DNA of 64,000 nucleotides from positions 161,160 to 225,159 of IMG/VR virus record IMGVR_UViG_3300013121_000033. One strand, written 5' to 3'. The notes beneath the pieces are model-generated. The model worked only from the letters and a program-made list of their open reading frames with translations, ran no database searches and was not told the origin of the DNA. Within the stretch, counting starts at the first letter, position 1. Every line of letters begins with the position of its first letter. Made by a program: the position numbers and the translations under genes. This DNA comes from a virus (Duplodnaviria > Caudoviricetes). This document shows positions 45,348 through 45,589 of this stretch, in pieces.

Positions 45348-45589
45348 GTAGTAGTAGTAGGGATGGGGATTCTGGGGATAACTCGGCTTGTAATTTGGCG
45401 CTGTCAGGTGTGGAGCGGGCTGCCGGGGTGTTCCGTTGTCCCCTTGTAATTTGGGGGGCTGTGGGTGGGCGGTGGGGAACGTCGGGTCGTTTCCACAGCG
45501 GCGGCGTGTCGTCCACAGGTTGTCCACCGGTTCCCCCCAACGGTTTCCACAACCAGTTATCCACAGGTTCGTCCACACCCTGTGGAACA
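45348..45589. other. oriC-like replication origin: DnaA-box cluster plus DnaA-trios
   Basis: Perfect TTATCCACA 45557-45565 plus ~8 variants; minus strand TTATCCCCA-GAATCCCCA-TCCC-TACTACTACTAC. Confidence 0.75.

Follow-up and report, generated by a model that had tools for sequence, protein, structure and literature searches.

The closest described counterpart of the locus examined herein is the basal unwinding system (BUS) of the Streptomyces oriC, which lies in the dnaA-dnaN spacer and was reportedly described in work by Richardson from 2016 and 2019. Other known systems in which DnaA sites serve a mobile element or a regulatory locus are organized differently. The origins of P1 (oriR), F, pSC101, and RK2 need the element's own Rep protein and iterons, with DnaA acting as a mere helper. 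Phage lambda supplies an initiator (O) and a helicase loader (P) of its own, undergoes transcriptional activation of ori-lambda (PMC3017604), and has a pR promoter that is stimulated by DnaA. The datA locus of E. coli is a chromosomal site of DnaA titration or inactivation that has neither trios nor an unwinding element. The known phage cases are therefore helper boxes at Rep-dependent origins, the DnaA-stimulated lambda pR promoter, and the boxes of the T5 injection stop signal. Full-text searches of the literature turned up no report of DnaA-trios, or of a BUS, in the genome of a phage.

The DNA analyzed herein, called the window, is a stretch of 64,000 nucleotides at the end of an IMG/VR virus record that has 225,159 bp and a GC content of 68%; positions are those of the window unless assigned to the record. 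Between the divergent genes 44691-45278 (minus strand) and 45633-45956 (plus strand, encoding P0002), at approximately 206.5 kb of the record, lies a gap of about 350 bases (45279-45632) that has no codon-position GC signal and is thus noncoding (Table 1). We propose that this gap carries a phage-borne oriC core of the Streptomyces type, most likely serving as the host-DnaA-dependent origin of a phage of about 191 kb, and we give this proposal roughly an even chance of being correct. Judged from its sequence, the locus is very probably a docking site for host DnaA that is built like the core of a Streptomyces origin. The original prediction had called the region a mimic of a bacterial oriC. 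Every motif it listed is indeed present, and the geometry, the orientation, and the melting rank of the elements support that description well at the sequence level.

Table 1. Features of the noncoding gap, its flanking genes, and nearby replication genes (window positions).
Feature	Position	Strand	Remarks
P0001	44691-45278	-	195 aa, two tandem helix-turn-helix repeats; start 71 nt past the trios
Least stable duplex, candidate unwinding element	45334-45383		Overlaps the trios
(TAG)4, equal to four 3'-GAT-5'	45349-45360	+	Candidate DnaA-trios
GC-rich spacer TCC	45361-45363	-	Between proximal box and first trio
Proximal box variant GAATCCCCA	45364-45372	-	3 mismatches to TTATCCACA; abuts TTATCCCCA
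Proximal box variant TTATCCCCA	45373-45381	-	1 mismatch to TTATCCACA
AT-rich 12-mer CTTGTAATTTGG, copy 1	45387-45398	+	Exact direct repeat, pitch 56 nt
AT-rich 12-mer CTTGTAATTTGG, copy 2	45443-45454	+	Exact direct repeat of copy 1
Distal array, six co-oriented boxes	45489-45577	+	Pairs at 11- and 12-nt pitch
GTTTCCACA boxes	45489, 45543	+	Distal array
TCGTCCACA boxes	45509, 45569	+	Distal array
TTGTCCACC box	45520	+	Distal array
TTATCCACA perfect box	45557	+	Sole perfect one in the record
Inverted box TGTTCCACA	45581-45589	-	Closes triple-box module 45555-45587
Leaderless promoter cassette copy	45597-45632	+	GTTGACGTGACCACAAC ... TAGGGT ... ATG; candidate driver of P0002
Three-gene operon, P0002 first	45633-46637	+	107, 113, and 102 aa; no functional assignment from profile matches
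SSB	59239-59544		About 14 kb from the locus
Divergent beta-clamp-like protein	61183-62247		About 16 kb from the locus

On the minus strand, positions 45349-45381 read TTATCCCCA GAATCCCCA TCC CTACTACTACTA. We parse the second half as a TCC spacer followed by four CTA triplets, where the original prediction had read TCCC followed by four TAC triplets. Three or more TAG or CTA triplets in a row occur only once on either strand of the 225-kb record, and this occurrence is the candidate trio run. When nearest-neighbor free energies were computed along the record, the 50-nucleotide segment beginning at 45334 ranked first of approximately 225,000 for instability (30-nucleotide segments gave rank 2), a result that is owed in part to the trio run itself.

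The boxes are likewise concentrated at this site. TCCACA occurs 94 times in the record, and seven of these copies fall inside a single 173-bp stretch of the gap. The gap also holds 5 of the 33 boxes in the record with at most one mismatch. If up to two mismatches to TTRTCCACA are allowed, 12 boxes are found in 350 bp, compared to 6 at the next densest site. A strict BUS rule (a box, a spacer of no more than 16 nt, and at least three trios) returned one match in the record, located in the gap, and five block shuffles returned 0, 0, 0, 0, and 1. The cluster of boxes and trios exceeds chance. Elsewhere, a TCCACA cluster at 47363-47420 was considered as a second box array and rejected, because the sequence there is coding and repeats in tandem every 12 nt; the wider region 47346-47500 consists of about 13 copies of a coding 12/24-nt tandem repeat, CGGCGTCCACAG, inside a minus-strand gene. 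An RNA gene or structure in the gap was also rejected, given that there was no credible Rfam match and that the predicted fold was no better than those of shuffled sequences.

BUS search criteria have been published together with entries for Streptomyces (Pelliciari 2021, PMC8287927), and they can be compared to the phage sequence point by point. Where a box with no more than two mismatches is expected within 0 to 16 nt of the trios, the phage has TTATCCCCA, with one mismatch, at a distance of 12 nt. The second box, in tandem and of the same orientation with up to four mismatches, corresponds to GAATCCCCA, which has three. At least three triplets with a central A are called for, with 3'-GAT-5' preferred, and the phage carries four perfect GAT trios. 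The strand relation, in which 5'-box-3' is followed by CTA triplets, is that of 10 actinobacterial loci described below and of the published Streptomyces element. Finally, the adjoining DNA is easily melted, and the AT level past the trios resembles that of host-type origins. The sequence therefore agrees with all the written criteria, and DnaA-dependent unwinding is predicted.

The orientation rule was fixed empirically by searching 30 Actinomycetota dnaA loci for a box followed by triplets in both strand relations. A box followed by CTA was found in 10 of these loci, and the opposite type in only 1, from an AT-rich genome; another of the 30 (L146), from an unpublished genome, yielded no match and underlies none of the conclusions. 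Three large, high-GC actinobacterial genomes (7.5-9.2 Mb, with long DnaA frames) share the pattern TTATCCAC[G/T/C] G[T]ATCCACA (GTTTCCACA in the third) G[G/C]CC CTACTACTAC. The published Streptomyces BUS reads TTATCCACG-GTATCCACA-GGCC-(CTA)3 (PMC8287927), and the S. coelicolor and S. avermitilis entries in the supplement of that paper, which are written as the complement and list a spacer of 13, equal the three-genome pattern.

The phage and Streptomyces elements have in common two abutting, co-oriented boxes, a GC-rich spacer of 3-4 nt, GAT trios, moderately AT-rich DNA past the trios, and further boxes clustered upstream. Approximately 32 nt are near-identical, as is apparent when the minus-strand phage sequence GTTATCCCCAGAATCCCCATCCCTACTACTAC is set against GTTATCCACGGTATCCACAGGCCCTACTACTAC from three actinobacterial dnaA loci. 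In contrast to the Streptomyces element, the phage copy is not flanked by dnaA or dnaN, and it occupies about 250 bp with some 9-12 boxes, compared to about 650 bp with some 20 boxes. The first trio lies 12 nt rather than 13 from the upstream box, there are four trios rather than three, and the spacer bases are TCC rather than the GGCC or GCCC of host-type origins. The distal boxes of the phage are oriented opposite to its BUS boxes, unlike those of Streptomyces. Furthermore, both proximal boxes are TCCCCA variants, in which C replaces A at position 7, and thus they are expected to be weaker than the proximal boxes of the host. Because TCCCCA-type boxes are present at conserved places in the three host-like oriCs, the proximal boxes of the phage are plausible weak DnaA sites.

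The locus also differs from the other systems noted above. Like the origins of P1, F, pSC101, and RK2, it would allow a mobile element to recruit host DnaA through consensus boxes at an origin, but it has a chromosome-type trio module, and neither a Rep-family protein nor a tandem iteron array was found with it. The sole candidate iteron is the two-copy 12-mer CTTGTAATTTGG, and the flanking proteins match generic helix-turn-helix (HTH) models or nothing, although the number of orphan proteins leaves some doubt regarding the absence of Rep. As at lambda pR, putative host DnaA sites lie beside an early phage promoter, with transcription passing near the origin, whereas lambda lacks comparable trios and a comparable cluster of boxes. 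As at datA, high-affinity boxes are clustered outside of oriC. Neither is the locus a chromosomal oriC, given that it resides in a phage record that is devoid of dnaA and whose GC skew extremes are elsewhere.

The record that carries the locus seems to be a composite of a temperate phage of about 34 kb and a phage of 191 kb. An exact 58-bp repeat at 63943-64000 (record 225102-225159) is also present at record 33745-33802, at the start of an ASCH-like gene, and the GC content drops from 0.71-0.75 to 0.68 precisely at the latter copy. Record positions 1-33744 encode their own TerL, portal, capsid, tape measure, and large serine recombinase, and this compositionally distinct segment of about 34 kb is probably a separate temperate siphophage. 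The rest of the record (191,357 bp) closes on itself and has another set of genes for terminase, portal, and major head protein, along with tRNA blocks and two proteins that each carry one intein, namely an SF1 helicase and an SNF2-like protein. The join reflects a chimeric "lollipop" assembly or, alternatively, the insertion of a phage. The DnaA-box locus belongs to the high-GC phage of about 191 kb. Because two sets of head genes and tRNA blocks are present and dnaA is missing, the record represents phage DNA rather than a segment of a host chromosome. Inteins were observed at 20512-22569 (in a DUF5131 protein) and at record 112015-114327 and 130596-133721 (in the SF1 helicase and the SNF2-like protein).

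The gene content of the record bears on how this phage might begin replication. Profile searches with the Pfam models Bac_DnaA, Bac_DnaA_C, DnaB_C, DNA_pol3_alpha, DNA_pol_A, and DNA_pol_B gave no match in the record, such that the lack of a dnaA gene next to the locus extends to the entire record. The ssb and dnaN genes that had been placed 14-16 kb away were confirmed as genes for SSB and a beta-clamp-like protein; the latter is divergent, lies 15.6 kb from the locus, and is the only dnaN-like gene. Because the phage carries a clamp and SSB while no polymerase, helicase, or initiator gene was detected, it would need those of its host, although a divergent polymerase or initiator could be among its large unannotated proteins (919, 945, 711, and 575 aa). 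An AT-rich spot following ssb (about 59.7 kb of the window) was considered as a rival origin and rejected, since it contains only a terminator-like hairpin.

A cumulative GC skew plot of the full contig had been proposed as a check, and it does not mark the locus: the extremes are at 34 kb of the record (the composite junction) and at 215 kb (the main strand switch), not at 206.5 kb. The skew tracks gene direction, and codon-position analysis revealed that the plus strand is enriched in G at third positions regardless of gene direction. By the bacterial rule, this third-position bias is a misfit for a leftward fork from 206.5 kb, although codon adaptation may be an alternative cause. We therefore treat the skew as uninformative, leaning against an origin at this site. 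The suggestion that the element behaves as a mini-chromosome or phage-plasmid found no support, as no partition genes were identified. Specifically, no ParA-type ATPase (AAA_31) was matched in the record, and the one ParB_N match is weak, below threshold, and located in the separate 34-kb segment, as is the serine recombinase.

Given the presence of an oriC-type module and the lack of any detected gene for an initiator, helicase, or polymerase, the phage probably starts replication with host DnaA. We envision that host DnaA-ATP would first fill the distal sites at 45489-45589, namely six boxes of one orientation plus the inverted one. The DnaA oligomer would then cross a spacer of about 100 bp to reach the two abutting, low-affinity TCCCCA boxes (45364-45381), and would extend onto the four plus-strand trios, melting the stretch with the lowest duplex stability in the genome. 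The flanking promoters, transcribing divergently, could add negative supercoiling, and host helicase and Pol III would copy the phage DNA with the aid of phage SSB and beta clamp. The architecture is compatible with the original suggestion that the element replicates with host DnaA. We infer DnaA binding, unwinding, and origin activity, including replication from this site, from that architecture, from its uniqueness in the record, and from its match to chromosomal origins, whereas the GC skew gives no mark of such replication.

If the module works in this manner, then a large phage in which neither an initiator nor a replicative helicase or polymerase is detectable offers the host initiator a miniature version of the host's own origin. 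This strategy would differ from the schemes known from phages, namely Rep/iteron, primase-helicase, and protein-primed replication. The module would also supply Streptomyces-type DnaA with a naturally occurring minimal BUS, about 250 bp long, which would be useful for dissecting how actinobacterial origins open. In addition, the type of BUS carried by a phage would provide a sequence-based clue to its host, in this instance one that matches Streptomyces-like origins.

Another possible, though rather unlikely, role for the boxes is that of a DnaA-operated transcription switch for the promoter of the P0002 operon, and perhaps for P0001, that couples early expression to host replication with no initiation at this site. 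DnaA is a known transcription factor (PMC8203912). A scan for the sigma-70 consensus revealed no promoter in the gap, and none recognizable for P0001, and the gap promoter was recognized solely by comparing about 22 copies of a cassette with the form GTTGACGTGACCACAAC-N-GGTAGGGT-N-ATGGACAACGAC. This pattern has 24 matches, about 22 of them complete, spread over record positions 36.9-210.7 kb (including 44687 on the minus strand, 45597 on the plus strand, 49531 on the minus strand, and about 20 other sites), and copies are absent from 0-36.9 kb and 211-225 kb. Because the cassette is repeated at gene starts, many unrelated genes begin with MDND or MG(N/T)(G/D). Two other contigs were found to carry it, with one copy each.

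Among the approximately 22 copies, only the one at 45597 has DnaA boxes upstream. The arrangement there is that expected of a DnaA-regulated promoter, wherein boxes adjoin the core promoter: the inverted box ends 7 nt ahead of GTTGACG, with which the consensus-like cassette begins, and DnaA may conceivably regulate this promoter. The unrecognizable promoter of P0001 would also be consistent with a switch. However, a switch requires neither trios, nor the spacing and orientation of a BUS, nor the lowest duplex stability in the genome. The two roles may coexist.

A more elaborate version of the origin reading is that the locus is a detuned copy of a host origin. Its strong distal boxes would catch DnaA, whereas its weak proximal boxes would permit firing only when DnaA-ATP is high. 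The locus would thus sense the replication state of the host, start phage replication, and then drain oriC of DnaA once it has been amplified. We consider this extended scheme doubtful.

Modules of related design are present in other phages and in bacteria. The 33-nt triple-box module has a counterpart with 91% identity in Streptomyces phage Faust and related phages, which are cultured phages of 130 kb that grow on Streptomyces. In Faust (NC_070783.1, 123595-123627), Moab, Sham, and Patelgo, the module reads AGTTATCCACAGGTTTATCCACAGCCTGTGGAA and is situated in a repeat-rich, noncoding region of 1.5 kb; no run of trios adjoins the Faust-type module. When 185,579 bacterial species genomes were searched for the triple-box module, the sole exact match was in the dnaA-rpmH spacer of a Rubrobacter MAG (L120, 4100-4140), a spacer to which the 33-nt phage module is 90% identical.

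The tandem pair TTATCCACAGGTTNNTCCACA is more widespread, with matches in more than 118 IMG/VR contigs that range from 26 to 68% GC and include several recognizable families, compared to about 1 match expected by chance. Because the pair is spread over this range of GC content, a universal host factor fits better than a phage-specific protein. The longer pattern TCCNCA-N(1-3)-CCCTACTACTAC was found in 52 IMG/VR contigs, which suggests that putative BUS modules are recurrent in phages. Five high-GC records among these 52 have no dnaA, among them a complete genome of 71 kb that has terminal repeats, and several of these high-GC records have full clusters of boxes upstream of the candidate BUS. 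Separately, contigs of about 5.5 kb from one sample (L169-L218), some with end repeats, carry TTTTCAACTTTTCCACAGCCCCTACTACTAC followed by AT-rich DNA. In these very small genomes, viral or plasmid-like in nature, the BUS-like module is complete.

A dense cluster that includes high-affinity boxes, together with the wide distribution of box arrays on unrelated phage contigs of 26-68% GC, could also indicate a DnaA sponge. In this case, amplified phage boxes would titrate DnaA away from oriC and halt initiation by the host, as do datA and box-bearing plasmids. This possibility is more doubtful still, because each genome copy provides only about five strong boxes and because titration needs neither trios nor DNA that is prone to unwinding.

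It is very unlikely that the locus is an inactive relic of a captured host origin, or some other signal such as an injection stop of the T5 type, which is described as carrying DnaA boxes (PMC13250531). A relic would account for the degeneration of both proximal boxes and for a spacer that is 1 nt short. However, extended similarity to host oriCs is limited to one 21-22-nt box context (45518-45539, with 91-95% identity to a conserved context of Streptomyces-like oriCs), and other similarity consists only of motifs of 13-15 nt, which led us to reject a recent wholesale capture. In addition, six good boxes, perfect trios, and a perfect 12-mer repeat have been retained in a compact genome, and the repeats and palindromes of a T5-type signal are not seen in the gap.

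Least probable of all is that P0001 or another phage factor binds the TCCACA/TCCCCA repeats or the CTTGTAATTTGG 12-mers as an operator to which any likeness of DnaA boxes is incidental: a gene for a DNA-binding protein does divergently adjoin the repeats, and the two 12-mers are otherwise unexplained, but the repeats are the universal DnaA box in a host-origin arrangement down to the spacer and trios, and the same pairs of boxes recur across many unrelated phages, whereas P0001 is an orphan.

The orphan status of P0001 is evident from several searches. No homologs were found among 5.8 billion proteins, no relatives of P0001 or P0002 were detected in IMG/VR by back-translated scans, and no relatives of the locus or of P0001 were detected in 50,697 phage records by megablast and tblastn. 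Pfam and PHROGs gave only weak HTH matches for P0001. Its HTH repeats are near-identical to each other (…GCSPAMVHR[V/I]LH…), and its tail is rich in Cys and His. A different repeat is found near the end of the record, where 66 copies of the hexanucleotide CGGTCG (63538-63932) fill an open frame of 130 aa with a GC3 of 95%.
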